The translations under genes were made by a program, and so were the position numbers. Positions 3,935-48,544 of a stretch of 61,319 bases of DNA are shown one piece after another. The notes under the pieces are model-generated. The model made no database searches. It saw only the letters and a program-made list of their open reading frames with translations, and was not told the origin of the DNA. The DNA comes from a virus (lineage: Duplodnaviria > Caudoviricetes): positions 1 to 61,319 of the IMG/VR virus record IMGVR_UViG_3300020045_016338, one strand, 5' to 3'. Each line of letters begins with the position of its first letter. The first letter of the stretch is position 1.

Positions 3935-5476
3935 ATGAAATTCATTAACGGGATTGATCCGCTTGATTCGGCTGCCAATCGTCAGATGGCGGCTCGTTTG
4001 GCGTCGCAGTGGAAGTTGACACCTGCAACTTTTGCACATGAAATCTCCCGCCATCAATGGATTCCGTCAAAGCACCTGATGTATATTTCCTCTCGTGTTG
4101 CCAAAGGTATTGCACGAGGTAATGCCCGTATCATTATCTCTGCCCCGCCTCGTCATGGAAAGAGCCAGCTGACTTCTATTTATACGCCTGCTTGGGTCCT
4201 AGAAAATTTTCCGCACTACAAGACCATTATCACTGGGTATGGCGCCGATCTGGTTACAGGCTTCTCACGTCAAGTACGTGATTTGTTCACGGACCAGTCA
4301 AATTTTGGGCTGCTCAATACCCGCATCAGGAAGGATGCAAGCCGTGTCGAACAGTTCCTTACTGACCAAGGTGGTGGCGTGTTTGCTGTTGGTCTTGGTG
4401 GCGCTATTACTGGTCGTGGTGCGCACGTATTGCTCATTGACGACTATATCAAGGAAATTAAAGAGGCACTTTCCCCAGCTTATCGCGATTATATTTGGAA
4501 TTGGTTTGTTACTACTGCTTTTACACGGCTTGAACCTGGTGGCAGTTGTATTATCATTGCAACTAGGTGGCATTCTGACGACTTGATCGGCCGCATTCTG
4601 AAGAATCTGCCTGAAGAAGGTTGGGAATATATTGAGATCCCTGCAATTGCCGAAGAAAATGACATTATTGGTAGAGCTGTGGGCGAAGCTCTATTCCCTG
4701 AACGATATCCTTTGAAGCGGCTTAAGGAACTTCAGGTAACTCTCGGGTCGGTCTTCTTTAAGGCACTGTTCCAACAGAAGCCTGTGGACGAATCCAAGAA
4801 GATTACTGACCGCAACTGGATTCAGATTATCCCCGAAATCGACTGGATCGCACGGAAAACGCATAGTTGGAAGCGTACACGCATGTGGGACTTTGCTGCC
4901 ACGAAAGATGGCGGCGACTATACCACTGGAACTCTGCTGGCATATGATATAACAACAGGTAATGTGTATGTTGAAAACGTGATTCGTCGCCAAATGTCTC
5001 CTGGACAAGTCGAGACATGTGTCGCACAAACCGCTGCAGCTGATGGATATGACGTTGCAGTGCGTATTGAGCAAGAACCCGGATCTTCTGGCAAAGCTCT
5101 CGTGCACCATTTTGCGACAAATGTGCTCAAGAACTACAAAGTTATTCCTGTTCCAGTTGTTACTAACAAGATCGCACGCGCACAGCCTTTTATTGCGGCA
5201 GCTGAAGCAGGCAAGATCTATTGCATTCTCGGCGGTTGGAACGAATCTTTCCTTAAGGAATTCGATGAATTTCCCGGCTCCGCACATGACGACCAAGTTG
5301 ACACAGCATCTGCAGGATATACCGAGTTGACAGGTAAGGTTGTGTATACAGCTGCCTGGGGAAGAAGTGGTGCATCTGGTAGTACGCGCAATTCGCATGC
5401 AATTGAACAAGCATCCCGTGAAAATGTGGTTAGTTTCTCGACCGGTAGAGTTACCGGGGCAACTTTTGGAAGGTAG
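3935..5476 (+). CDS. terL: Terminase large subunit
   Basis: Walker A PPRHGKS, Walker B LLIDD, TRWHSDD, nuclease motifs WDFA and HDDQVD. Confidence 0.95.
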   Translation: MKFINGIDPLDSAANRQMAARLASQWKLTPATFAHEISRHQWIPSKHLMYISSRVAKGIARGNARIIISAPPRHGKSQLTSIYTPAWVLENFPHYKTIITGYGADLVTGFSRQVRDLFTDQSNFGLLNTRIRKDASRVEQFLTDQGGGVFAVGLGGAITGRGAHVLLIDDYIKEIKEALSPAYRDYIWNWFVTTAFTRLEPGGSCIIIATRWHSDDLIGRILKNLPEEGWEYIEIPAIAEENDIIGRAVGEALFPERYPLKRLKELQVTLGSVFFKALFQQKPVDESKKITDRNWIQIIPEIDWIARKTHSWKRTRMWDFAATKDGGDYTTGTLLAYDITTGNVYVENVIRRQMSPGQVETCVAQTAAADGYDVAVRIEQEPGSSGKALVHHFATNVLKNYKVIPVPVVTNKIARAQPFIAAAEAGKIYCILGGWNESFLKEFDEFPGSAHDDQVDTASAGYTELTGKVVYTAAWGRSGASGSTRNSHAIEQASRENVVSFSTGRVTGATFGR

Positions 5477-32982: not shown

Positions 32983-33645
32983 CTATTTGCCGACTTTGGA
33001 TAGTGCAAGGAATTCCTGTCGCAGTTCAGGGACTTCACGGAACTTCCCGCTTAGGCGAGAGGTAACAGTTTCAGATCCAGCATCACGTACTCCTCGAAGA
33101 CGTACACAGTAATGTTCGGCGCGTATAACAACGGCGACATCATCAGTGTCCAGGATGTACCGAAGAGCTGCAGCGACTTGTTCTGTAAGCCTCTCTTGGA
33201 TCTGCGGCCTCCGTGCGAAGAAGTCCACCACCCGGTTGAATTTGGAAAGCCCAAGAACTTTATCCCCGGGCACATATCCGATAGTAGCCTTACCCACAAA
33301 GGGCAGGAAGTGGTGCTCACACAAGGACATAACGTTGATGTTGTCGACAGCAACCATCTCCTGATAATGCATTTTGTTCTCAACGGTGGTAGATTTGGGA
33401 AAGTGGCCATAGTCAAGCCCCGTGAAGATTTCATCGCAATACATCTTGGCGACACGCTTCGGGGTATCCTTCAAGCTGTCGTCATCACGATCGAGGCCGA
33501 GGTGATTCATTATACCAGCAAACTGCTCGCAAATGACTCCCTTGGCATCAACGCTTCGGTCAATATTCACCATAGGAGTCTCAAGCCCGAGGGCTTTCAA
33601 CAACTCATGGATTTCCATCCCAAGATTCTTGTCATATTCTGCCAT
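32983..33645 (-). CDS. folE: GTP cyclohydrolase I
   Basis: TPKRVAKM, SLCEHHFLPF, GLSKFNR, RRPQIQERLT, HYC..RG. Confidence 0.97.
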   Translation of the reverse strand: MAEYDKNLGMEIHELLKALGLETPMVNIDRSVDAKGVICEQFAGIMNHLGLDRDDDSLKDTPKRVAKMYCDEIFTGLDYGHFPKSTTVENKMHYQEMVAVDNINVMSLCEHHFLPFVGKATIGYVPGDKVLGLSKFNRVVDFFARRPQIQERLTEQVAAALRYILDTDDVAVVIRAEHYCVRLRGVRDAGSETVTSRLSGKFREVPELRQEFLALSKVGK

Positions 33646-33728
33646 GTGATAGTCTCCTCTGATTCTTTCTTCCCCATTAGGGGACCGCAAACATTGTATA
33701 CACAATCATTGTTTGTTTGGGTGATTGG

Positions 33729-34574
33729 TTAGATCTTCGAGTTTCGGAACTTATAGTGGAGATGCATCAAGTCGGGATGTGCCTCCATAATCATGTCTTG
33801 ATAGAGTGCTGGGTAGCGAATGAGAAACTGGTCAGCCACATTTCCGAAGGCTTCGACGATTTCGATCTCGGCGCCGGGAGATGTACGATTCTCAATGACA
33901 TGCCGCCATGCACGATGATTGCCGGTGACGATGATGTTGGTATTGACACCGCCAGGAACCATCCGACGCATTGCAGAGGTCAACGACTTCTTAATGTGAA
34001 AGGACACACCATCATTGTCAATGCCCCAATCATGAATCATATCATTGATAGCCGTTTTTGCATGAGCACTAATTTCTGAAACGTTATCAACAAACTGTTG
34101 TTGCGCCTCTTGTATCCAAGTTTCACGCTCTTCACCTAAGTACTCTTTATTATGGTCGAAGAGTTCTCCAAGTGCCGAGGTTAAATCAGGAATCCAGACG
34201 TCAAAGGAATCCAGTCGAACGAACCGCTGACTTTCTTGGCTGTATGCCATTCCAGGCCGATGACGAACGAGTTCGTGCGTGAGGATACGACTCACATCGC
34301 AGAAGGCGACTGAGGTAGAAGAATGCTCGAAAATACTGCCATGCTTCTGCTTCATGACATTGCCGAGATATTCCCAGTTACCTTCCCGAACCTTGGTGAT
34401 ATTCGGATTCAGTTCGGTGCCGAAGCTCTTGTAGCACAGCCTCCCAGCGACCTCGGAAAGAACAGCTGCAGCATTCCCGGTGTTCGTATTCCAAGTAGGG
34501 GCGCCGAGATGATTGAGCAGCCCATCGAGCCCGTCGTGTACGATACCCGTTTCTGCGATGATGAATGCCTTCAT
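33729..34574 (-). CDS. thyX: Flavin-dependent thymidylate synthase
   Basis: AGRLCYKS, HGSIFEH, THELVRHR...SQESQRFV. Confidence 0.95.
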   Translation of the reverse strand: MKAFIIAETGIVHDGLDGLLNHLGAPTWNTNTGNAAAVLSEVAGRLCYKSFGTELNPNITKVREGNWEYLGNVMKQKHGSIFEHSSTSVAFCDVSRILTHELVRHRPGMAYSQESQRFVRLDSFDVWIPDLTSALGELFDHNKEYLGEERETWIQEAQQQFVDNVSEISAHAKTAINDMIHDWGIDNDGVSFHIKKSLTSAMRRMVPGGVNTNIIVTGNHRAWRHVIENRTSPGAEIEIVEAFGNVADQFLIRYPALYQDMIMEAHPDLMHLHYKFRNSKI

Positions 34575-34576
34575 AG

Positions 34577-35242
34577 TTAGCGCCCCCAGCCAGAAGATTT
34601 CGTTTCCTTGATCCACTTATGCGCGACCTCCAGCAACATCGGAGCGCCTGCAGAATTGCTGTTGACGATCGGACGATCATCAATCAGCGTACCTTGATGC
34701 TGCGCGTCGACGAGGATAGCAGCGCATGCCATGATGTGACCGAGATGCTTGATACCAGAGTCATCCGCGCAATCTTCGCCGTCGAGATAGTCCATGCAGT
34801 GACGCTTGATTGCTGCGATGTAGGTACGAGCCTGAATCGGCTCAACGCGCCAATTGTAGGGACCATACTTCGTCGCACCATCCATCAAGGCTAGAGCCAT
34901 GTGGATTTCGGCCGCCGGCGGAATCAGAGTCAAATCGACTTTTGCCGCGCCGATCTTATCTTTCGGATTAACGCCGACTTCACCATTGGCATTCTTCAGA
35001 CCGATGACGCGATTTCGCCCTATCAGATCTTTCTGCTCAGCCTTTGGCATTGCAGGTGCAGGAGGTATAGGCGACATAGCGAAATCGTCTACCGCTGCTG
35101 CACTCATGAAAGTCTGGTCGTCCAGATCAATATCGGGTTTTGCCTCGTTTGATGACAGGCCCAGCTTGCCGAGCACCATCTGCTCGTCGACTGTTTCCAT
35201 CGCTTGTTTCAGGCCGTTCTGCTGATCGGTTGCTCGTACCAT
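34577..35242 (-). CDS. dATP/dGTP diphosphohydrolase-domain protein (DUF5664-like)
   Basis: NPKD..G..K, GATKYGPYNWR, Y.AA..RH, D.DSG..HL.H..AC, DDRP. Confidence 0.85.
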   Translation of the reverse strand: MVRATDQQNGLKQAMETVDEQMVLGKLGLSSNEAKPDIDLDDQTFMSAAAVDDFAMSPIPPAPAMPKAEQKDLIGRNRVIGLKNANGEVGVNPKDKIGAAKVDLTLIPPAAEIHMALALMDGATKYGPYNWRVEPIQARTYIAAIKRHCMDYLDGEDCADDSGIKHLGHIMACAAILVDAQHQGTLIDDRPIVNSNSAGAPMLLEVAHKWIKETKSSGWGR

Positions 35243-35329
35243 TGTCTTCTTCCTTTTCCTTTGGTTGATGTTGTTGATCATTGACTTCGTAGGCTAACGC
35301 AGGCCAATATGGATGAACAAATGCCCACA

Positions 35330-37726
35330 CTAACCGCATTTAGAATAACCGCATTGCATGCAGTGCATGCATCCTTCTTCACGAACGAACGTAGGAGCTT
35401 GGCACTTGGGGCATACTTCACCCAATGCATAGCTTTGCTTACCATCTTTTCTGGGAACTTCAGTTATTGTCGGTGCATCGCCAGTCTGCAAATGCTGTTC
35501 CAGAATATTACCAATCTGTGCGGGAAGTGATCCTACATATCTTCCTTTTACCCACGCTCCCCCATTCACAGATTGGATCTGCTTGAGTTCCTGTGGTACA
35601 AACGATATATCTCCCCCCTTACGGAAGATGGCAGTGATCATAAGCGATAGCGCTGTAGTCCATTCAGAATGGGTTCCATCCTTGGAGGTAATAAATACTT
35701 CGTAGGGATGCCCATTCATCATGGAGTTGATGGTAAGATAGAATGCAGCTCCATGGTTAGGCCATTTAACTTTATATGTAGTCCCGTGAAGCACGTCGGG
35801 ACGATCGATAATTTCTCCGAAGAGAGTGGTGGTTCCATTTCCTGCGTTACTCGTGGTGCCATCATCCACGGCCGAAAGTATTGATCCACGAACATCAGAT
35901 GGTCTGTACGTAGTGCACCCTTTGCATCCAGACTGGTATGCAAGGCTGTAGACTGTGACAAATTCGGCATAGGTGATATCCTTTGCTACATTCGTGGTCT
36001 TCGACACCGATGCATCGATCCATCGCTGGATACGGCTCTGCATTAGAATATGGTCGTGAATGTTAAGGTCTTCGATGCTAACGAAGTACGAAGGTAGCTG
36101 ATCGAGTGGCCCCTTGTTGATATCGACATACGGCTGATTCATGTAGTACCAGAGCCGTGCTCCATACTGCATGTTCTTATAGGTCTTGAATGTTTCGCCA
36201 TCAGCCTGACGCACCTTGCGATCCATGATCCACATGTATGCAGGCTCCAACCCACCAGCTGGATTGAGATACACGATGGAAGTCGTTCCAGTCGGTGCAA
36301 CAGTATTCAGCACCAGATTGCGAATGCCATACTTGCGGATCTCGTCCTTCATGTGGGTGGGAAGTTTGCTTGCAATACTCTGGCCGCCGTTACCCTCGAG
36401 ATATTCTTCGATATGTCCGACAAGCGCTGGCGCCATACCACGTTCTTTGGCCAACTCGATAGATTCCTCATAGCTGGCAATCATGATAGTATATGCAACT
36501 TTGTCGGCAAATTCTTGAGCACGGATACTGCCATAACGAATCCGCAACTGCACCAACGCATCAGCGAGTCCAGTGAACCCCAATCCGATACGTCGTTTCG
36601 CCATCTGTTCGAGTCGCTGCTCTTCAAGTGGATACCGGGTTACATCGATGACATTGTCGAGGAAACGAATGCCAATCTTGACGATAGTCTTCAGCAGACT
36701 CCAGTTGAATGCCGCCGAATCGCTGAACGGATCCATAACCATTCGTGCCAAATTCGGATGACCAAGATTGCAGGTCGCATGAGGAGGCAGAGGCTGTTCA
36801 CCGCACGGATTTGTGCAGGCGATCTCTTCGCAGAAATATAGGTTGTTGGTATCGTTAACCCGATCGATGAAGATAACCCCCGGCTCCGAATACTCATAAG
36901 TGTTCTTGGTAATCATCTCGTGCAGTTCGCGAGCCTTCCAAGTGGAATACACGTACTGCTGTACACCATCGTCATCGACGAAATCCAGGTCGATAAGTGC
37001 CTCGGAACGATTTGCAGGAGGAACATTGAAATGTAGCATCCATTCTTCATCCTCAGCGACGGCTTCCATGAAAGCGTCGGAGACGAGAACGCTGACGTTA
37101 AAATTTGTCAACTCGCCCTTCTTCTGCTTGGCAATAATGAATGCGGGCAAATCTGGATGCGTATCACGCAGAGTGCCCATCATTGCCCCACGACGATCGC
37201 CAGAAGACCGAATCGTCTCGCACCACGTATTCCAGCCGCGCATAAACGGCAAAATGCCAGAGGAGACAGAATTGGTCCGATAGACAATTGCACCTGCTGG
37301 ACGAATGGTAGAGAAGTCTGTCCCCATCCCACCGCCTTGTTGCATCGTCAACATCGTATTATCATGTCCGATAAGAATCGAATCCATGGAGTCTTCGATC
37401 TTGCCGTTGACAAAGCAATTCATCAACGTAACACGCTTCGCTGTCCCAGCACCCGCAAGAATACGACCTGCAGGCATCCAGAGATAATTGCGCATTGCAT
37501 CCGCCGCGATATGCTTGGCATATTCATCATCGTCGTTGAGATAGATGCCTTCGCAAACACGTCCAACGATATCATTCCAGGCCCCTTCATTCTCGTAGGC
37601 GTATTTACCGATCATGACATCTTCGATCAACGGATTTTTTTCGGTCTGAATCTTCATTGCCAGCTGTAGATGTACAGGATCGATAACGTTAACAAAAGGT
37701 ACATGCGTGGTGTGCTCTTTAGACAT
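35330..37726 (-). CDS. nrdJ: Class II (B12-dependent) ribonucleotide reductase
   Basis: PAGRIL, NCFV, RRGAMM, TNPCGEQPL, CNLG, APTGT; no small-subunit gene; C-terminal Zn ribbon. Confidence 0.9.
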   Translation of the reverse strand: MSKEHTTHVPFVNVIDPVHLQLAMKIQTEKNPLIEDVMIGKYAYENEGAWNDIVGRVCEGIYLNDDDEYAKHIAADAMRNYLWMPAGRILAGAGTAKRVTLMNCFVNGKIEDSMDSILIGHDNTMLTMQQGGGMGTDFSTIRPAGAIVYRTNSVSSGILPFMRGWNTWCETIRSSGDRRGAMMGTLRDTHPDLPAFIIAKQKKGELTNFNVSVLVSDAFMEAVAEDEEWMLHFNVPPANRSEALIDLDFVDDDGVQQYVYSTWKARELHEMITKNTYEYSEPGVIFIDRVNDTNNLYFCEEIACTNPCGEQPLPPHATCNLGHPNLARMVMDPFSDSAAFNWSLLKTIVKIGIRFLDNVIDVTRYPLEEQRLEQMAKRRIGLGFTGLADALVQLRIRYGSIRAQEFADKVAYTIMIASYEESIELAKERGMAPALVGHIEEYLEGNGGQSIASKLPTHMKDEIRKYGIRNLVLNTVAPTGTTSIVYLNPAGGLEPAYMWIMDRKVRQADGETFKTYKNMQYGARLWYYMNQPYVDINKGPLDQLPSYFVSIEDLNIHDHILMQSRIQRWIDASVSKTTNVAKDITYAEFVTVYSLAYQSGCKGCTTYRPSDVRGSILSAVDDGTTSNAGNGTTTLFGEIIDRPDVLHGTTYKVKWPNHGAAFYLTINSMMNGHPYEVFITSKDGTHSEWTTALSLMITAIFRKGGDISFVPQELKQIQSVNGGAWVKGRYVGSLPAQIGNILEQHLQTGDAPTITEVPRKDGKQSYALGEVCPKCQAPTFVREEGCMHCMQCGYSKCG

Positions 37727-38164: not shown

Positions 38165-40573
38165 CTAAATTAAAAGATGGGCGGAGTCTTCCAGAAACTT
38201 CGATAGCTTGTCCATCGAACCCCAGCGCATTCCCGCTTTACAGTCTGCTTGGAACGGAATACGAGTAATGCCCCAATCAATTGGTACCTGTTCCATCTCC
38301 GCTTTGGTAATAGCAGCGGCTTGTCGTATAATCTCACGATCCAGGGGAGCTTCCAGAATAACCGAGTCGTGTACGGTGTTGACGATCGTAGTGTCATATT
38401 CCTCTTTAAGACGCCTCTGTACACGCATGCCTCCATGGATTGTAATGGTACTGGCAGTACTCTGATGCGGGAAGTTGGCGGCTTCATTTTGCATGCCGAC
38501 CAAAACTTCCGGCGATACAATTTGGAACCTCTTTTTATGGCCGAAACATGTTACCAGATTTTGCCCGCGCAATGGAGCATTTCGGCACAGCTCGATAAAT
38601 TTCCAGGCGTCAGGAAACTTTCTGGCCCAACCACTTAACATACGAGCCGCTTCCTGTGGTGTATCTTCAATTTGTTCCGCAAGCCCAAACGATGTAATGC
38701 CATAGACGATACCGAAGTTGACGTTCTTGGAACGCATCTTCTGCTCTTCGACGATACGGTCAATCGGATTGGCTTCAGAGATGTACCATTTATTTCGGTA
38801 CTTCTCGATAAGGTGCTCGTCCCAGTCTGATGCCATCCCGTAAAGTTCTTTGCGCACTTCTTCGTGCAGGCCTTTAGAGTCGGGGTCAACGTAGATGTTG
38901 CAGAGAGCCTCATCGCCTGATAGCGCGGCCAGCGAACGAAGCTCCGCCTGGTTAAGGTCGACTTCGATAAAGCAATATCCTGGTCTGGGAATAAACTGAC
39001 CACGTAGAGCGGGGTCGCGTGGAATGTTTTGAAGGTTTGGATCGCGGCATGCGAGACGACCCGTAGCAGTGCCGTGAAGAAGGTATGACGGGTGTACGCG
39101 GCCATCCGAGGCGATGTTCTCGAGAGCAGGCGTGACATAAGTAGTTAATCCTTTGTTGATTTTCCGGTACTTGCGAAGCGCAAGAACTACTGGGACATCA
39201 GGAAGCTTGTCAAGCGTCTTAGCGTCGGTACTTCTTTCCTTCGAAGGTATTTTGAGCGTATTATACAGTAGGTCAACAAGCTGTGCAGGGGAGTTGGGAT
39301 TGATTGGACCGTAACCTGAATCAATAGCGATCTGGTTGATTGTATCGCGATGCCCCTGCGCACGACTACCATAGTCTGCTGCATTCTCGGCTACTCGCTG
39401 TGTGTCAACCATCATCCCACACTTTTCGATCTCTGCCAAGTAATGCGAGGCAGGAATCAAGGTTTTCGTGTAGAGTCTCTCACTTCCCTTATCAGCCGCC
39501 ACAAGTGGACGGAGAACTCCATGCAAATTGAAAGTATTGGCAATATCGTATACCATGTACTTAAAAAGTACTGGCCAAGGAATTACATCATAGGAATCAT
39601 TCTTCTTCTTGTGCTGGTCGAGTACGCCTTTCCAATCAGGGCTTCCCAACCAATCAGAGGAGAGTGTTTCAAGGTCGTGTATACCTCGAGTCTCATCCAA
39701 TGAATAGGATTGAAGCATTGTGTCTTCATCAACACGAGCTTGTTGTCCAATCGCGTGGTAGAACTTGACGTCGAACTTGCCATTCTGCCAGCAGTATTGA
39801 ACCTTCTCTTTCGGTTCATCCCACATAGGTGCAAGGTTCTTGGTAAAGTTTTGTGTCTGGGAAATATCCCGCTTCTTACCTGGAATAACATATACATGTT
39901 TACCGTCGAGCGAGAATCCCTGACATAAGATATGATTGTCAAGGAATGAGAATCCGCTTGTTTCAACGTCTCCCGCAATCAGTCCTTCATGCTTGCGAAC
40001 AAGTCCCAGGAAATGATTGACATGATGAATGCTCTTGCAAATCTCCCAGGTAGGATATTCGAATACTCTCGGTTTCCCACCATTTGCCAAACGCATCGCA
40101 TAGGCAACATCCATCTTGAACTGCCGAAACGACCCATTACCTCTCAACAAATATGCAGGATGGGTAGCTGCTACGATTCCCACTTCAGCGAGTGGACTTT
40201 CAAAGAGTTGACCACGAACTTTGGTAATCTTGAGAGAATGGTCTCCCGTCAGTGCCCAGAGAGCTGCATTACCTAATGCTAGAATAACTCGTCGCGGATG
40301 CTTCTTTACTTCTGCCTGTACGTCCTTACGATATTGTTCCACAAGATTGTGGACTTTTTCCTGTTTGCTATCCTTATTATCCCCTTGTACCATGTGGGGA
40401 ATAACGTTAGTAAAGAAAGGAGCAGGATACTCTGCATACTGCTTTAGTGCTTCTTCCAGAATCATACCAGAGGGCCCAACGAAGGGCAGTTTCTGCTTCA
40501 TTTCTTGTGTACCGGGAGCTTCGCCTATAATCAGAAACGACGAATCCTCAGGCCCTTTGGTATAATGTGGCAT
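38165..40573 (-). CDS. Family A DNA polymerase with N-terminal uracil-DNA-glycosylase-like domain
   Basis: GEAPG..E...PFVGPSG and HPAYLLR (UDG); DVET, NGKFD (3'-5' exo); TGRL, DLNQAELR, K.VNFGIVYG, VHDS (PolA). Confidence 0.95.
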   Translation of the reverse strand: MPHYTKGPEDSSFLIIGEAPGTQEMKQKLPFVGPSGMILEEALKQYAEYPAPFFTNVIPHMVQGDNKDSKQEKVHNLVEQYRKDVQAEVKKHPRRVILALGNAALWALTGDHSLKITKVRGQLFESPLAEVGIVAATHPAYLLRGNGSFRQFKMDVAYAMRLANGGKPRVFEYPTWEICKSIHHVNHFLGLVRKHEGLIAGDVETSGFSFLDNHILCQGFSLDGKHVYVIPGKKRDISQTQNFTKNLAPMWDEPKEKVQYCWQNGKFDVKFYHAIGQQARVDEDTMLQSYSLDETRGIHDLETLSSDWLGSPDWKGVLDQHKKKNDSYDVIPWPVLFKYMVYDIANTFNLHGVLRPLVAADKGSERLYTKTLIPASHYLAEIEKCGMMVDTQRVAENAADYGSRAQGHRDTINQIAIDSGYGPINPNSPAQLVDLLYNTLKIPSKERSTDAKTLDKLPDVPVVLALRKYRKINKGLTTYVTPALENIASDGRVHPSYLLHGTATGRLACRDPNLQNIPRDPALRGQFIPRPGYCFIEVDLNQAELRSLAALSGDEALCNIYVDPDSKGLHEEVRKELYGMASDWDEHLIEKYRNKWYISEANPIDRIVEEQKMRSKNVNFGIVYGITSFGLAEQIEDTPQEAARMLSGWARKFPDAWKFIELCRNAPLRGQNLVTCFGHKKRFQIVSPEVLVGMQNEAANFPHQSTASTITIHGGMRVQRRLKEEYDTTIVNTVHDSVILEAPLDREIIRQAAAITKAEMEQVPIDWGITRIPFQADCKAGMRWGSMDKLSKFLEDSAHLLI

Positions 40574-40582
40574 TTTCTTCCC

Positions 40583-40900
40583 CTAGATGAAATGAATTAC
40601 TTGTTCTTCGCCGTGTATAATCTTGGTCCGAAGGAGATAGTCGATATATTCTCTAACCCGCGGATTATAAGAATCTTCCGGAATGTTAAAGAACACTACC
40701 CGTTTGACTCTACTACCAGCTAGTCCTGCATATCGTGAGATATAACGGGCATTAACGTGTGGAATAGCTCGAGCAACTATGTCACGATGGGTTTCATTCT
40801 CGCAGACATAAAGACACTCCCATATACCATCAGGCGGCTTTCCGTAGGGAGCTTCCGAAGTACGCGGCAATGTCAGCGATAGTTTCCCCTCGCCTATCAT
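40583..40900 (-). CDS. Hypothetical protein
   Basis: ATGA coupling to the upstream gene. Confidence 0.6.
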   Translation of the reverse strand: MIGEGKLSLTLPRTSEAPYGKPPDGIWECLYVCENETHRDIVARAIPHVNARYISRYAGLAGSRVKRVVFFNIPEDSYNPRVREYIDYLLRTKIIHGEEQVIHFI

Positions 40901-41679
40901 TGTGCCACCCAACGGATCATCTGCCGGTAGTTCTCCAGCATCAGCTCGTTAAACTTGGTATTCGGATCATCCCACCATTTTCCGCGGGAAGGAAGATCGG
41001 CATCAAGACCCATTGACATCCGGAGGCCGAGCGAAGCCGCACGAATAGGGACCGCTGAATCAATACCGGAGACGGCATGATGGCGAGCGGAAAGGACATC
41101 GTCAACGATATCATCGGAGAAGCCCAGAAGGTGTATATTACGATGCTTATTAAGCACTCTGACAATATCGATTGCTTCACGACGTGACCCCAATCCTTTG
41201 ATGTTGTAGTTGCGCGGAATACCCCACCAGCCAATACGCATATCGTCGGCGAAAGCTTCTGCACAACGAGCAAACTCACCAGGCGTCTTGCCTTGCGGAA
41301 CAATCATGAACGAATATTCGAACAGTCTGTTGCCGAAATATGCCGTCCAGATATCGAGAGCGGCCAAACAAGAATCAATCGTTGCATCGCAATCCAGCAA
41401 TACATCCGGCAGAACGATGACATTGGCTCCAACAATTTTGGCAGCTTCGAGAACTACTGCCTTGTCAACAGCATGCCCGAGTTCAATGACGGAGTTGTCG
41501 AGGATGATAGTCTTGGAGAAATATTTGCTGAACTGCTTGAAGGTTTCAGCATATTCTTTTGGATGCGCCAATACATCATGTGCCAACGGCAGATGATATG
41601 CAACAGCACTGGATAGCTTTGAACGCGCTAACAACTTATCCAGAATGTGAATAGGGCAGACAGGTGCGAATCTCGCCAT
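40897..41679 (-). CDS. Divergent TGT/DpdA-like TIM-barrel protein (putative deazaguanine transglycosylase)
   Basis: ILDNS, LPDV, VPQG, IHLLG, GIDS in the order of TGT-family motifs; adjacent to queE. Confidence 0.6.
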   Translation of the reverse strand: MARFAPVCPIHILDKLLARSKLSSAVAYHLPLAHDVLAHPKEYAETFKQFSKYFSKTIILDNSVIELGHAVDKAVVLEAAKIVGANVIVLPDVLLDCDATIDSCLAALDIWTAYFGNRLFEYSFMIVPQGKTPGEFARCAEAFADDMRIGWWGIPRNYNIKGLGSRREAIDIVRVLNKHRNIHLLGFSDDIVDDVLSARHHAVSGIDSAVPIRAASLGLRMSMGLDADLPSRGKWWDDPNTKFNELMLENYRQMIRWVAQ

Positions 41680-41684
41680 GTATA

Positions 41685-41897
41685 TTACTCCTCATTGAAG
41701 TCTGTGCTGACTTCCGCTTGAATTGCAGTTTCGATAGATTCCAGCTGTACTTTGAGCGTACCGATTCGGACCAAAGCATCGGGGTAATTAAAGCTCTCGA
41801 GCATGTCGAGAATTTCATCACATGCCTCTTTGATATCCTCTAGTACATCCTCAGCCAGAAATGCATTGGCATTGTCATTTTCCTCTTTATCAGTCAT
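41685..41897 (-). CDS. Small acidic protein
   Basis: 20 D/E against 4 K/R in 70 aa. Confidence 0.65.
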   Translation of the reverse strand: MTDKEENDNANAFLAEDVLEDIKEACDEILDMLESFNYPDALVRIGTLKVQLESIETAIQAEVSTDFNEE

Positions 41898-41900
41898 GCG

Positions 41901-42686
41901 TTACACTCCCATCTTGTTTGCCCAGATCAGCGTATGCAGCTGGGGCAGAAAACGGAATTTAGATAGGATTGGGTCGTGTTGAATATCCTCGTAGAGAACC
42001 CGGAAAGAGCTTAATAACCCCTTTACGAGTTCATCGTTGGTAATACCGTCATCGAGCCCTGGAGGATAAGTGTTGCCGAGCGATAGAAACCACTCATCTG
42101 CAGCAAACACATTTTCAAATTCTCGGAATATTTCTTTTGCGAAGTCTAAATCTCGCTGGTCGAAGACTACGATCTTCATGCAACGCTTTTTCATCATCGA
42201 AGAAGTCGCTTGCACAAAGTCACGCAACACCTTGATATTAGTAACTTCTCCCATTCCCGGACCTTTAGGAGAGATAGTCAAGTAATCGACTTCATTGACC
42301 CACATTGGTGACAGCGTCCCCTGCGTTTCAACATTGATCTTCATACCTTGATACTGCAGGAGATCGACGAGTCGCATAAGTCCGTGGATACAAGGATTGC
42401 CTCCAGAGAAGGTCACCCAAGATGGTCCAGGCTTATCATCAATATGTTTCCATAATGCTGCAGCAATTTCATCTTGCGTCAACATCATCGCATTGGCTTT
42501 AACGCTCCTAGGGTCTACCGCATGCATCGAATCGCACATAGCGCAGCGATAATCACACAACCCAAAGCGAAGGAAATATGTCTGGTAACCAACTTGTGCC
42601 CCTTCGCCTTGCACAGTCGGTCCGAAGATTTCCATCAACGGAATCTTCTTCTGCGGGATCATGTTGTCTTCGCTTTGTGTGCCCAT
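41901..42686 (-). CDS. queE: 7-carboxy-7-deazaguanine synthase (radical SAM)
   Basis: EIFGPTVQGEG, CDYRCAMCDS, SGGNP, ETQG, SPK, LPQLH. Confidence 0.95.
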   Translation of the reverse strand: MGTQSEDNMIPQKKIPLMEIFGPTVQGEGAQVGYQTYFLRFGLCDYRCAMCDSMHAVDPRSVKANAMMLTQDEIAAALWKHIDDKPGPSWVTFSGGNPCIHGLMRLVDLLQYQGMKINVETQGTLSPMWVNEVDYLTISPKGPGMGEVTNIKVLRDFVQATSSMMKKRCMKIVVFDQRDLDFAKEIFREFENVFAADEWFLSLGNTYPPGLDDGITNDELVKGLLSSFRVLYEDIQHDPILSKFRFLPQLHTLIWANKMGV

Positions 42687-43204
42687 TATACTGCCCTCAA
42701 CGAAGACTGATTGACTGGAGTTGCTGGTACTCGAATGACTTTCGCCGAGTTACCAGCATGTTCGCGAACTTCCACCTGTGCCAATACACAGCGGGGGGCA
42801 TAGCCATTAGAGGTCAGCCACATATCGGCGTAATGCCAGATTGCTTCAGCGAACTTTTCGCATCCGCAAGCAGGTAAGATCCGCATGTCGATGATTTTGG
42901 CCTCGTGCATTTCGAGGAAAGTACCCAACTTGGGATCATCCTCGGCAATTACGGTCTTATGGTCGAAAGTATCTTCCAGCCACCCCTTGAGGGATTTAAG
43001 ACTTCCGAAATCAACCACCCAGTTACGTGCATCCAACTCTGTCGCCTCGAACGTAAAGATAACTTCCAGGCTGTAGCCGTGGAGGAATCGGCAATGCGAT
43101 TCAGCGCGCCACTGGCGAAAACAGCAAGAAAGACCTACACTGTGTGTGTAAGTCTTCGTTGACTGGTATTTCAAGGTTGGTTCTGCTTCTGCGTCGTTAC
43201 CCAT
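42686..43204 (-). CDS. queD: 6-carboxytetrahydropterin synthase
   Basis: HCRFLHGY, WVVDFG.LK, FDH, V.V.E motifs. Confidence 0.92.
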   Translation of the reverse strand: MGNDAEAEPTLKYQSTKTYTHSVGLSCCFRQWRAESHCRFLHGYSLEVIFTFEATELDARNWVVDFGSLKSLKGWLEDTFDHKTVIAEDDPKLGTFLEMHEAKIIDMRILPACGCEKFAEAIWHYADMWLTSNGYAPRCVLAQVEVREHAGNSAKVIRVPATPVNQSSLRAV

Positions 43205-43442
43205 TGTAGGGCTCCCACTCCTGCTGATTCGGTACAATCGCTACCGAAAAGATTTCTTTATAGACGTGCGATCGGAGCCGCGAAATAACTCCGTCGTCGG
43301 GCTTTTCGATATTGACATACACATCATTGACATACGCGAATATGCGAGTACCGAAAATGAGCACATCAGGATTCACCGTGAATGGGGCGAGCACAATACG
43401 CTTTACCAAATGCCCCGAATCTGTAAGTAGGGTTGCATACAT
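43197..43442 (-). CDS. Hypothetical protein
   Basis: AGGAG RBS; between queC and queD. Confidence 0.6.
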   Translation of the reverse strand: MYATLLTDSGHLVKRIVLAPFTVNPDVLIFGTRIFAYVNDVYVNIEKPDDGVISRLRSHVYKEIFSVAIVPNQQEWEPYNG

Positions 43443-43507: not shown

Positions 43508-44359
43508 TTAGGCAGCATACACTGTGGGATCAGGAACGCCGGCGCAGACGAATGCGTTCTTGCGAGCACGACACGTCGGGCACTTGCCGCAATGGATCTC
43601 GCCGTTATCGTAGCAAGACCAGGTATCGCCCCAACGAACACCGCACTTCTCGCCGAGAGCAACAACTTCAGCCTTCTCGAGCCACTGCAATGGCGTCGCC
43701 AACCGAATCGTATTGTAGGAGCCCGTGTAGATCGCGTTGGCCATGCTCCCATTGAATTCCGGCGTGCAATCAGGATATGCCCAGTTCGCAGAGTCTTCAG
43801 CGTGAGCACCATAATAAATAGTCACCAAATCTTTGGCTTCCTCGGTCGCTATCTGCTTGGCTTCCGGATTCCCTTCCCACAGTGCTTCTTCCTTCGCAAT
43901 CTCGGCGTTAACGTACCGCTGAGCGAAAGCCGTCAAGGCCGACAACATCAGACCGTTGCGAAAAGGAACGTAGGATGGCGAGACACCCTTCAGCTCGGAG
44001 TAGTCCTTGTCAACCATGTCCATCGTGCCGACAGATTCTGCCGACAGAAGAATTTCCTTGCCGGAGAGAAGATTGCCGATGTCGAGAATCGTATGCTTGA
44101 TGCCGAGACGCTTGCAGGTATCAGCTGCGAAGATCAGTTCACGCTTGTGACGTTGACCGTAGTTGATGGAGACCGCTTCGACCCAGGGGATCTCAACGTG
44201 ACTTCCATCATGCTTCCGAAGAGTTTCGGCGATGATGTCTTTGTCACCATAGCTGAATTCGATACCAGGATCTTCCGGCATGTTGTCGAAGATGGCCTTG
44301 TGCAGGCATGTGGTGGAATCAAGACCACCGGAGAGAAGAACGAATGCTTTCTTTTGCAT
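43508..44359 (-). CDS. queC: 7-cyano-7-deazaguanine synthase
   Basis: SGGLDSTT, YGQRH, YVPFRN, YPDC, TWSCY...CG.CPTC..R. Confidence 0.96.
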   Translation of the reverse strand: MQKKAFVLLSGGLDSTTCLHKAIFDNMPEDPGIEFSYGDKDIIAETLRKHDGSHVEIPWVEAVSINYGQRHKRELIFAADTCKRLGIKHTILDIGNLLSGKEILLSAESVGTMDMVDKDYSELKGVSPSYVPFRNGLMLSALTAFAQRYVNAEIAKEEALWEGNPEAKQIATEEAKDLVTIYYGAHAEDSANWAYPDCTPEFNGSMANAIYTGSYNTIRLATPLQWLEKAEVVALGEKCGVRWGDTWSCYDNGEIHCGKCPTCRARKNAFVCAGVPDPTVYAA

Positions 44360-46317: not shown

Positions 46318-47547
46318 TTAATCCTTCAGGTTCAGCGTTACGCTTGGGGTTAAAACATCCATCCAGTCATCTTTAGCCTGTGGAAGATACTTGCGCCAGC
46401 GGTCATACTCTTTGTCACGCGGCTGCATCAGTATGTCCAATTCGTATTGGTAGTCCGATCCATCATCGAGCGATGTGCATGCACCGTTAAACGGACACAT
46501 ATATTGGCACGTGCGATCAGGATTCGGATATAGTGCGAGATTGGGATTCAACATCTCCTCGACCTCGAGAAGGATCTTAACGCCTTCTGCCTCACATTGA
46601 TGGGCATTACGGCGAGCTCTATCACGACGGACAAACTTATCGCTGTCCATATCTTCCTGTCCCACGAGATAATCAAGCATGTCACGATAGTCTGTGGGAG
46701 CCTTTTCAACAGAACCATAAATATTGGTCATCACACGACGTAACGAACGATGGGTAATCAGCTGGTCTTTCGCCTGCGATAGTCGTCCATTAGATAATAG
46801 TCGCGGTTCGTGCGGCAATTCTTTTCGATGCTGCTGGTATATAACACCGGTAATTGGGCGTCCATAAATGAGGTTTCCTGCCCAGCAGTATGAAGAGACT
46901 TGGGTATCATTGTCAAGATGGAGGGTCTGGATAGTTTTTGCGGATTTATATTCCACAATCCAAAGTTGTCCATGTTCGTCTTCGATAACTCGGTCCAACG
47001 TTCCGGAATAATCAACTCGATCGTACCCATACGCAGTTGCGTCAAAGGGTAACTCGACACGAAAGTTGACCTCTAATTGGGGGACGCCGTTGAAGACATA
47101 AGTCTTGAGAGGGTCGCGATTGCGCATCCAATCGTCAGTGTAATACGATAGCATGCCTGTGGCGAGTGTTGTAAGCTCGTCGATGTCCGCAGGGAGGCGG
47201 TTAACATCACGTCGGGCAGCTCGTTTAGTCGCCTCGACATAAATCTGGAAAGCTTCTGCAGCTGATCCCCACTTTTGAGCGCCGTGAAAATCTTCCAATG
47301 CAAAGTGAAAGCCTGTTCCCATCCACAACGGCGCGGGATTTTGCTTGACGCCAAGATTCCCACGAAGGTGAGAGCTCCATCCCCAGCGTCTCCGACATTT
47401 CCGATATGAGATTCGATCCGATGTACGGATAACAGCCACGCGAGGAGCATTATTTCCGATTTCAAAGTCTGCCGGGCGCGCATCAAATTCATACGCAGCA
47501 GGATTCCAGGTGTCGTTTGTTGAGTCATAAGTACTCATCCGCATCAA
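46318..47547 (-). CDS. PD-(D/E)XK exonuclease (Cas4/AddB-like)
   Basis: C.R.W, GTGFH.ALE, GTLD...IVEYKS, Q...Y, C...CPF...C. Confidence 0.8.
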   Translation of the reverse strand: MMRMSTYDSTNDTWNPAAYEFDARPADFEIGNNAPRVAVIRTSDRISYRKCRRRWGWSSHLRGNLGVKQNPAPLWMGTGFHFALEDFHGAQKWGSAAEAFQIYVEATKRAARRDVNRLPADIDELTTLATGMLSYYTDDWMRNRDPLKTYVFNGVPQLEVNFRVELPFDATAYGYDRVDYSGTLDRVIEDEHGQLWIVEYKSAKTIQTLHLDNDTQVSSYCWAGNLIYGRPITGVIYQQHRKELPHEPRLLSNGRLSQAKDQLITHRSLRRVMTNIYGSVEKAPTDYRDMLDYLVGQEDMDSDKFVRRDRARRNAHQCEAEGVKILLEVEEMLNPNLALYPNPDRTCQYMCPFNGACTSLDDGSDYQYELDILMQPRDKEYDRWRKYLPQAKDDWMDVLTPSVTLNLKD

Positions 47548-47635
47548 TTCCCATCAAAATCATTACTTATCAATATATATCAATTTAGAAAGTCCATCAA
47601 TGGGCTTTAAAAAGTCCCTTAATGCACTATAAATC

Positions 47636-48544
47636 TTAATCGCCGGACAGATCTTGGCCTTCGATGGTCATTCCTTTCGGCGCACAGCCTGGTTGGCGCA
47701 CTTCAAGAAATTCCATCTTATATCTTTTGACCATTGCCAAGCGAAGATGCGGTTGATATCGCGCTACAATCTTGGCCAACAACTCGTATGTAATGGCAAG
47801 ACCAAAACATCCGGTCAATTGATAGCGAGGGGCACGCCTCCAACGCTTTTGGGATTCAACATGGCGTTTCCACCAGTGGCTCCAGAGTTTCATCGGCTCT
47901 TCCCAGTTGGTATAGAAGACAGGAAAATCTTGATACTTACCGTCGATCTCTACCATCTGCATATGCCGCAGAGGAAACTGTCCTTCACAGCGAGCAAATT
48001 TCTCTTCAGGCGTCAATTCACGTTCGTACGTGGTAATTTCTTGATAGCCGGGGGGACATTTAGTATGCCAAGGACCTCGTAATACAGCTTTACGCCCATC
48101 TTTCATGGTAATAGGGAAGTGCCGACCGCCATATCCCTCGGATTGGCTCGTCGCCCATCGCTTTTCGGTCTCAGCGATGCGCACATTATAGTCAGGCGTC
48201 CCGTTAGCTTTCTTTCCCCACTCCAGAAACTTGGTTTCGTAGTCAATTTCCGACAATAAGTCGTTATGACTATGCCACTTCACTCGCCCCTCGCTCTCGG
48301 CGATGTAGAGTTTGCGCCCCTTATCATATTCGTAGAGCCACTCGCCATCGAATGCAGTGCCATCATGGAGTACATCAACGTCAGGCGGATTAGAATACTG
48401 CTCCATCCAGTCGATTCTGGCGTCGAGAACCCACTTGGGCAACTCGAAAGGCCATTCAGGCATTGGATATGGCGACCATTCCTGGTTCTGGGAGATGCCA
48501 TGTTGCACAATCATCGTTTGAGCAGCCGAGAGTCCATAGGTCAT
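47636..48544 (-). CDS. Hypothetical protein
   Basis: Likely start MTYGLS just after the upstream stop; GYGGR.F.I and L.GPW motifs. Confidence 0.6.
   Translation of the reverse strand: MTYGLSAAQTMIVQHGISQNQEWSPYPMPEWPFELPKWVLDARIDWMEQYSNPPDVDVLHDGTAFDGEWLYEYDKGRKLYIAESEGRVKWHSHNDLLSEIDYETKFLEWGKKANGTPDYNVRIAETEKRWATSQSEGYGGRHFPITMKDGRKAVLRGPWHTKCPPGYQEITTYERELTPEEKFARCEGQFPLRHMQMVEIDGKYQDFPVFYTNWEEPMKLWSHWWKRHVESQKRWRRAPRYQLTGCFGLAITYELLAKIVARYQPHLRLAMVKRYKMEFLEVRQPGCAPKGMTIEGQDLSGD

Follow-up and report, generated by a model that had tools for sequence, protein, structure and literature searches.

Organization of the Locus

The window analyzed here is the whole of the uncultured IMG/VR virus record IMGVR_UViG_3300020045_016338 (61,319 bp; Caudoviricetes), whose CheckV completeness is 100%. 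A replication and nucleotide-metabolism module lies on its minus strand. The module starts with genes for a PD-(D/E)XK nuclease, an AAA_24 ATPase, and a DUF669 protein, followed by queC, an 81-aa open reading frame (ORF), queD, and queE. It continues with a 70-aa ORF, the gene under study, a 109-aa ORF, a gene fusing a uracil-DNA glycosylase (UDG) superfamily domain to a DNA polymerase (UDG-polA), and genes for a ribonucleotide reductase, a MazZ-like protein, ThyX, and FolE. The gene under study (40897–41679, minus strand) begins with ATG and encodes a protein of 260 aa, which we predict to be a preQ0 base-exchange enzyme with a minimal tRNA-guanine transglycosylase (TGT) fold of the DpdA3 type.

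The genes queE, queD, and queC are located directly upstream of this gene on the same strand, and folE 7 kb downstream. FolE (32983–33705, minus strand), the GTP cyclohydrolase I of the first step to preQ0 (7-cyano-7-deazaguanine), matches Pfam PF01227 (E = 7.3e-64). The QueD-like 6-carboxytetrahydropterin synthase (42686–43237, minus strand) is recognized by Pfam PTPS (E = 6.7e-17) and PHROG 2389 (E = 5.8e-43). The QueE-like radical SAM enzyme (41901–42686, minus strand), a 7-carboxy-7-deazaguanine (CDG) synthase, matches PHROG 2076 (E = 1.4e-42) and, below threshold, Pfam Radical_SAM. QueC, the 7-cyano-7-deazaguanine synthase (43508–44359, minus strand; 283 aa), matches Pfam QueC (E = 1e-47) and scores 137.6 bits against TIGR00364, under the cut-off of 150.3. 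As the models match in three separate stretches, this QueC carries an insert. A QueC with an insert may be no exact functional equivalent, and the final base could differ from preQ0. No QueF was found in the genome, the apparent match being a weak T-fold echo inside folE.

Conservation and Predicted Fold

An earlier note, made from the sequence of the window alone, had described the product of this gene as a short TGT- or DpdA-like enzyme with five motifs in TGT order and no Zn-binding cysteine cluster, and as the only candidate insertion enzyme near the que genes. These observations hold. Read off the translation, ILDNSVIELG (residues 59–68), LPDV (90–93), VPQG (127–130), IHLLG (182–186), and GIDS (205–208) succeed one another in the stated order along the 260 residues. 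Among the four cysteines of the protein, only C139 is conserved (90%), and it contains no Zn-type Cys/His cluster. At a threshold as loose as E ≤ 10, neither the protein nor any reading frame of the genome is matched by Pfam TGT (PF01702). The sole DUF6610-like match in the genome is the ORF itself (15.4 bits, E = 0.015), which leaves it as the single candidate for base insertion. The TGT- or DpdA-like identity is supported by the fold, the alignment of the catalytic motifs, and the gene context.

The protein belongs to a very large family. A word-indexed search returned 354 relatives at E ≤ 1e-3, the closest sharing 66% identity, and an exhaustive HMMER search retrieved 1669 cluster representatives at the same threshold, including 655 at E ≤ 1e-10. 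In an alignment of 105 relatives, its N-terminus is in line with theirs. Residues D61, P91, R166, H183, G186, D207, and S208 are invariant in this alignment, and N62, S63, E66, L67, G68, D92, Q129, and G130 show 90% conservation or more. The motifs are beyond chance and the ORF is real. The isoelectric point has a median of 5.9 in the family and exceeds 7 in 10 of the 105 relatives. The protein has no above-cut-off family in Pfam, PHROGs, or NCBIfam, with DUF6610 as the only sub-threshold match. A single-sequence search of the PDB gave nothing meaningful, the best hit being an SH3 protein (E = 0.35).

An AlphaFold2 model of the protein, built from the alignment of its relatives, reached a pLDDT of 93.9 and a pTM of 0.92 and consists of alternating strand-helix units. 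As modeled, the protein is a bare single-domain (beta/alpha)8 barrel, reduced to the catalytic core of the TGT superfamily. When this model was compared with the PDB by Foldseek, all 50 of the 50 matches listed were bacterial TGTs or archaeosine TGTs (best E = 5e-7, query TM about 0.6), with 10–14% identity among the TGT rows listed. In a second structural search, independent of Foldseek and covering 48,161 representative chains (VIA), the four highest Z scores were those of archaeosine TGT (ArcTGT, 15.5), bacterial TGT (15.1), DpdA 7ui4 (14.8), and QTRT2 (14.2). The earlier note had counted a non-TGT barrel as best structural match against its own reading; the top chains are TGT-family members. 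Matches among predicted viral structures (BFVD) also include nt-1 DpdA2-type proteins and phage queuine tRNA-ribosyltransferases.

Relationship to DpdA3

DpdA3 was described in 2023, with CGPG_00065 of Cellulophaga phage phiST as the founding member (Cui, Hutinet et al., NAR 2023, PMC10516641). In the literature searched, this is the sole deazaguanine-related paper that names DpdA3. The second-best BFVD match of our model is the phiST protein M4SLA5 (E = 1e-12, TM 0.73/0.73), which equals CGPG_00065 in phage and in length (259 aa). Aligned by hhalign with CGPG_00065, the family profile gave a probability of 97.9% (E = 4.1e-13) over 238 columns, end to end and with every motif in register. A hidden Markov model (HMM) of the family also retrieved phiST (E = 6.1e-17), a 263-aa ORF of Campylobacter phage CP220 (E = 1.0e-14), Bacillus phage BSP7 (E = 3.5e-31), and Brevundimonas phage MaInes (E = 4.8e-76). 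It did not match Halovirus HVTV-1, the source of DpdA4.

The two ends of the family are bridged by pairwise searches, as the phiST DpdA3 reaches proteins of the BSP7 group by tblastn with E values from 1e-5 to 8e-5, and the window protein matches the same group directly. The first motif of the CP220 DpdA3 reads L-D-N-S-L-F-E-L-G; the D-N-S..E-L-G motif is therefore a trait of DpdA3. In addition to this motif set, which in CP220 includes the first motif D-N-S/G..E-L-G, the two reference proteins (phiST CGPG_00065 and CP220, FN667788 54660–55451) share with the window protein a single-domain barrel of about 260 aa with full-length profile homology. They likewise share its occurrence in a phage beside 7-deazaguanine synthesis genes and its escape from Pfam TGT, PHROGs, and NCBIfam. 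They differ in that the window protein shares about 18–23% identity with the two, sits in a different and larger branch of the tree, is encoded directly before a family-A polymerase, and comes from a phage with a full preQ0 pathway, QueC included. According to Cui et al. (PMC10516641), the pathway is incomplete in phiST and ends at CDG in the Campylobacter phages. Unlike phiST, the phage studied here has no adjacent kinase-like or MazG-like gene.

A quick maximum-likelihood tree was built from 63 rows, of which 56 were IMG/VR relatives and five GenBank proteins; the other two were the window protein and, as outgroup, the HVTV-1 DpdA4. Of the 80 loci described below, near-duplicates and fragments were not included. 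In this tree phiST, CP220, BSP7, and Youna2 fall together in a 24-row clade (SH-aLRT 98). The root of the tree is unsafe because phiST, CP220, and the single DpdA4 outgroup are all very long branches. We read these data as one family, DpdA3 in a broad sense, in which the window protein occupies a large branch, itself unannotated, that lies next to the named references. The suggestion of the earlier note that the protein might form a distinct DpdA subfamily is not retained, since it is a full-length homolog of the phiST and CP220 DpdA3 and CP220 has the same motif. The note had also named nesting inside a described DpdA clade as evidence against novelty. This is largely what we find as regards homology to DpdA3, although on the tree the protein stays outside the clade of the references themselves. 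The protein adds a member to an anti-restriction system already known and does not represent a novel kind of enzyme.

Other members of the superfamily are more remote. The bacterial DpdA of Salmonella Montevideo (7ui4; PMC10164549) shares the TIM-barrel core over 239 residues. Its solved chain is longer, at 413 residues against 260, and includes insertions particular to DpdA and a structural Zn site, where the window protein has no Cys cluster. The exchange activity of the bacterial enzyme was measured in assays that also contained DpdB and ATP (PMC10164549); no dpdB-like ATPase gene turned up adjoining the gene studied here. The bacterial and archaeosine TGTs provide the best matches to solved structures and an alignable nucleophile loop, but the window protein has neither their Zn subdomain nor their tRNA-binding C-terminal domains, nor a match to PF01702.

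Predicted Catalytic Core

Across 44 sequences drawn from both branches, phiST, CP220, and BSP7 included, D61, D92, D207, H183, G186, R166, T100, and L32 are invariant. The broad profile made from this alignment has DpdA 7ui4 as its best match in the PDB (E = 0.0058), followed by chains of the Zymomonas mobilis TGT (E about 0.45). A narrower profile gave the same top match (E = 0.22). In the profile alignment to DpdA, P-Q-G corresponds to A-H-G, H-L-L-G to H-L-L-G, and I-D-S to I-D-S. The aspartate of the IDS motif is aligned to the active-site-loop aspartate of TGTs, and the alignment runs on through the following P-x-R (P-T-R).

After subtraction of 20 from the chain numbering of 7ui4, an offset between chain and paper that we infer from three coincidences, the aligned DpdA residues are His181, Leu236, and Asp256. 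These are reported as the base-binding residue, the base-stacking residue, and the nucleophile, respectively (PMC10164549). In the TGT superfamily, the nucleophile aspartate is carried by the loop that follows strand seven. The invariant D207 is aligned both to DpdA Asp256, at this offset, and to the equivalent TGT loop. The order and spacing of the key positions are also comparable, 61-92-129-185-207 in the window protein versus 95-130-181-236-256 in DpdA.

Gene Context among Relatives

A pattern scan of IMG/VR yielded 80 related loci, many of them short, in which homologs of the window's own proteins were counted by tblastn (E ≤ 1e-5). Matches to polA were found in 72 loci, folE in 62, queC in 61, queE in 55, and queD in 28, compared with 20 for the ribonucleotide reductase gene, 8 for thyX, and 7 for the MazZ-like gene. 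At least one que or folE gene accompanies the family gene in 57 of the 60 loci with enough flanking sequence. The association with the polymerase gene is close: of the 74 loci with enough flank, 66 carry a same-strand polA no more than 2.5 kb downstream, at a median gap of 206 nt. The same gene order is seen in the GenBank phages MaInes, Youna2, and BSP7, in which the dpdA3-type gene is labelled "hypothetical."

Several genes of nucleotide metabolism occur around DpdA3-type genes. In phiST (L006, HQ634192), two genes on the minus strand (46381–46860 and 47175–47762), both annotated as hypothetical, encode a kinase-like and a MazG-like protein. The former, CGPG_00066, is an AAA_18 P-loop kinase-like protein (29.8 bits, cut-off 29.4) encoded directly upstream of dpdA3. 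The latter, CGPG_00068, is a MazG-like pyrophosphohydrolase (27.2 bits, cut-off 22) encoded two genes further upstream. In the BSP7/phiST branch, a conserved protein of about 180 aa is encoded immediately upstream of the DpdA3-type gene (BSP7_056 at 5363–5926 of L003; 5399–5950 of L002; 9459–9998 of L086; 8583–9164 of L073; and 9364–9927 of L071). Its N-terminus shows weak P-loop matches (Septin model) in BSP7 and Youna2. This small P-loop gene has homologs in the adjacent upstream position in L086, L073, and L071, and at a greater upstream distance in L082; the window has no counterpart. MazG-like genes are directly upstream in L080, L085, and L072, and a Pfam MazG match is present in 2 of 24 records. 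Of the 24 DpdA3-bearing records, 9 (L001, L006, L012, L013, L014, L028, L056, L082, and L083) encode a phosphoribosyltransferase that scores above the PF00156 cut-off. That of MaInes adjoins folE and is annotated as a xanthine phosphoribosyltransferase; it could make a 7-deazaguanine ribonucleotide or salvage the released guanine.

The window itself encodes a 234-aa protein (34577–35281, minus strand) with a MazZ-like dATP/dGTP diphosphohydrolase domain (PF18909, E = 7.8e-28; PHROG 801, E = 3.4e-27). The similarity to the dATP/dGTP diphosphohydrolase of 2-aminoadenine phages covers residues 105–203 and concerns the N-terminal domain of that enzyme; the first 100 residues or so are unmatched. 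PurZ (PF00709) is absent from the genome. A MazZ-like gene was found in 2 of 23 other records (the record of L055 being left out), and this count together with the 7 of 80 loci rules it out as a family-wide partner. The MazZ-like protein is possibly an accessory enzyme confined to the sub-lineage of the window. A phmmer search of the window with four kinase, phosphoribosyltransferase, or MazG queries revealed no small kinase, and the window has no phosphoribosyltransferase. Walker-A motifs occur in the window only in the terminase, a primase/helicase-like ORF, the AAA_24 ORF, and two unlikely ORFs.

Proposed Mechanism and Substrate

Taken with the homology to DpdA3, these data lead us to consider the protein, with a probability of about 85%, as a DpdA3-type enzyme, that is, a TGT-superfamily barrel that would swap guanine for a 7-deazaguanine base. 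The phage, which has no QueF, would make preQ0 from GTP with its own FolE, QueD, QueE, and QueC. The enzyme would then exchange guanine for the 7-deazaguanine base by the double-displacement chemistry of TGTs and DpdA. D207 would act as the nucleophile and form a covalent ribosyl-enzyme intermediate, D61 would serve as general acid/base, and D92, Q129, and the HLLG loop would hold the base. The gene, which directly precedes that of the polymerase, is presumably expressed as part of the replication module. The predicted outcome is phage DNA that carries dPreQ0 or a derivative in place of G, perhaps throughout, and that is protected from restriction. In the analyzed phages with DpdA3, all G was reported as replaced (Cui et al., PMC10516641), so heavy or complete replacement and restriction resistance are expected here.

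Several points weigh against this reading. Sequence matches to solved TGT and DpdA structures are marginal, reaching 0.0058 at best, and the Pfam TGT model is unmatched. The tree places the window protein apart from the 24-row phiST/CP220 clade, in a 7-row group (SH-aLRT 99) with L007, L009, L011, L012, and L016. In the structural search, class II aldolases come next at Z = 14.2–14.0, tied with the fourth TGT-family row, and the preference for TGTs is small. As the aldolases score almost as high, the fold by itself says TIM barrel, TGT-like first, and nothing further. Order, spacing, and invariance suggest that D61 and D92 are equivalent to Asp95 (general acid/base) and Asp130 (base binding) of DpdA, a correspondence less direct than that of D207. 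The Zn subdomain, whose site is conserved in TGTs and bacterial DpdA (PMC10164549), is absent, and an acidic family without nucleic-acid-binding insertions fits a stand-alone DNA-binding enzyme poorly. Finally, Cui et al. (PMC10516641) report that they tried without success to assay DpdA3 and DpdA4 in E. coli, and no DpdA3 is known to be active.

The last features bear on the nature of the substrate. We lean toward DNA. The published view is post-replicative insertion (PMC10516641, repeated in the 2025 introduction of PMC12783734), and polynucleotides are the substrate of all characterized TGT and DpdA enzymes. The same chemistry might, with clearly lower probability, act on a free deoxynucleotide, as the earlier note had also envisaged. 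The MazZ-like enzyme would make dGMP from dGTP, the DpdA3-type enzyme would swap guanine for preQ0 on dGMP, kinases of the host or the phage would produce the triphosphate, and the adjacent polymerase would incorporate it, a pre-replicative route that would give complete replacement of G. A bare acidic barrel without Zn subdomain or insertions suits a nucleotide no less than DNA, and the tight linkage of the gene to the polymerase gene is compatible with this route. The MazZ-like gene, in a genome devoid of the PurZ that would otherwise explain PF18909, is a weak hint in the same direction. So are, in relatives, the AAA_18 kinase-like gene preceding the phiST dpdA3 with the MazG-like gene two genes further, the small P-loop gene upstream in BSP7, Youna2, and IMG/VR loci, the MazG-like genes upstream in three loci, and the phosphoribosyltransferases of nine records. 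As pointers to the substrate, all these accessory genes are circumstantial hints. They are patchy, the MazZ-like gene and MazG proper each being rare among the relatives, and the phosphoribosyltransferase could equally salvage released guanine. The window itself, moreover, lacks a small nucleotide kinase or a phosphoribosyltransferase. We came across no proposal or test of a nucleotide-level route in the literature searched. The broader proposal that DpdA3-type enzymes in general are deoxynucleotide base-exchange enzymes, converting dGMP to its 7-deaza-dGMP analog before replication, with dGMP supplied here by the MazZ-like enzyme, appears to us slightly more doubtful still.

It is improbable that the protein is a relative of DpdA4 (DUF6610) or represents a separate sixth DpdA subfamily instead of belonging to DpdA3. 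DUF6610 is its sole Pfam match and is the family that Cui et al. equate with DpdA4 of Halovirus HVTV-1 (PMC10516641); five of the 105 relatives match it at E ≤ 0.01. The low identity to the phiST DpdA3 (about 18–19%) and the position of the window protein outside the phiST/CP220 clade might also be taken in this sense. HVTV-1 gp69 (HVTV1_69) is, like the window protein, a distant TGT-like protein encoded beside que genes in a virus. The two are weakly and reciprocally similar in the central barrel, in a stretch that begins at the PQG/PHG motif, includes the HLLG loop, and ends at the catalytic Asp. But gp69, a protein of 386 aa from an archaeal virus, bears a long acidic extension at its N-terminus, and the DUF6610 (PF20314) score of the window protein, 15.4 bits, is below the cut-off of 27 bits. 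DpdA4 was the first assignment considered, on the strength of the DUF6610 match. It was rejected because the family profile aligns to HVTV-1 gp69 with a probability of 10% (E = 0.003, partial, 121 columns), against 97.9% for the phiST DpdA3. Moreover, the phiST and CP220 DpdA3 proteins, of the same size and with the same motifs, are found over their full length at E values of 1e-14 to 1e-17, HVTV-1 being unmatched. The PSI-BLAST definition of Cui et al. would probably also join the BSP7 group, which is matched by both the window protein and phiST.

That the protein is a TIM-barrel enzyme of another chemistry, for instance aldolase-like or acting on sugar phosphates, and lies near que genes by chance is very improbable: class II aldolases and OMP decarboxylases do come close to TGTs in the structural search (Z = 14.2–13.8) and no curated family model recognizes the protein, but the sequence-aware Foldseek comparison listed TGT-family chains only, DpdA and TGT give the best PDB profile matches, in which the catalytic loop is aligned, the viral structure matches include DpdA3, nt-1 DpdA2-type proteins, and phage queuine tRNA-ribosyltransferases, and the linkage to que genes recurs in 57 of 60 loci.

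Annotation of DpdA3-Type Genes

The practical value of assigning the window protein to DpdA3 lies in annotation, as this very large family has no Pfam, PHROG, or NCBIfam model by which to recognize it. In GenBank, its genes are labelled "hypothetical" or, wrongly, "integrase," "polynucleotide kinase," or "NadR." Thus, in the Bacillus phages BSTP12, BSTP5, and BSTP10 (MW354678, MW354669, and MW354677), the DpdA3-type gene appears under "NadR trifunctional protein," "putative integrase/recombinase," and "polynucleotide kinase," which look like misannotations. Recognizing a DpdA3-type gene very probably marks a phage as 7-deazaguanine-modified, which bears on restriction, Cas9 sensitivity, sequencing behavior, and cloning. 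The scientific interest concerns the site of base exchange, DNA or nucleotides, a question to which this phage contributes one datum, namely that it encodes a dATP/dGTP diphosphohydrolase-like protein but no PurZ. The same branch includes cultured Brevundimonas phages.

Two such phages with a DpdA3-type gene, MaInes and StAshley, have a GC content of about 50%, compared with 59–66% in the other listed Brevundimonas phages. The study of these phages (PMC10070969) reports that 17 of 17 contigs of a winter "ssDNA virome," obtained after treatment with a dsDNA-specific DNase, aligned to these two dsDNA phages. It makes no mention of deazaguanine or queuosine. Modified DNA resisting the nuclease would be one possible reading of this observation.

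Other Genes of the Module

Three small ORFs on the minus strand are interspersed among the que and dpdA genes. An orphan ORF of 109 aa (40583–40912) between the DpdA3-type gene and polA overlaps the former by 16 nt, and an orphan acidic ORF of 70 aa (41685–41897) separates it from queE; neither has a match in Pfam, PHROGs, or NCBIfam. The third, of 81 aa (43197–43442), has no family match. None of the three gave a tblastn match in the 80 related loci; they are either fast-evolving or not genes. No tRNA gene was found in the window.

Downstream, the ribonucleotide reductase large-subunit homolog (35330–37726, minus strand) has a TSCPD domain (E = 1e-10) at its C-terminus and closes with a Cys-rich tail. 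The polymerase (38165–40573, minus strand) is of family A (DNA_pol_A, E = 5.9e-62) with an N-terminal UDG-superfamily domain (E = 3.6e-17), and a ThyX homolog is encoded at 33729–34616 (minus strand). A 2026 paper reports UDG-fused PolA enzymes from phages with T-modified genomes (PMC13697223), and with ThyX also present in the window, a second modification, of thymidine, is conceivable.

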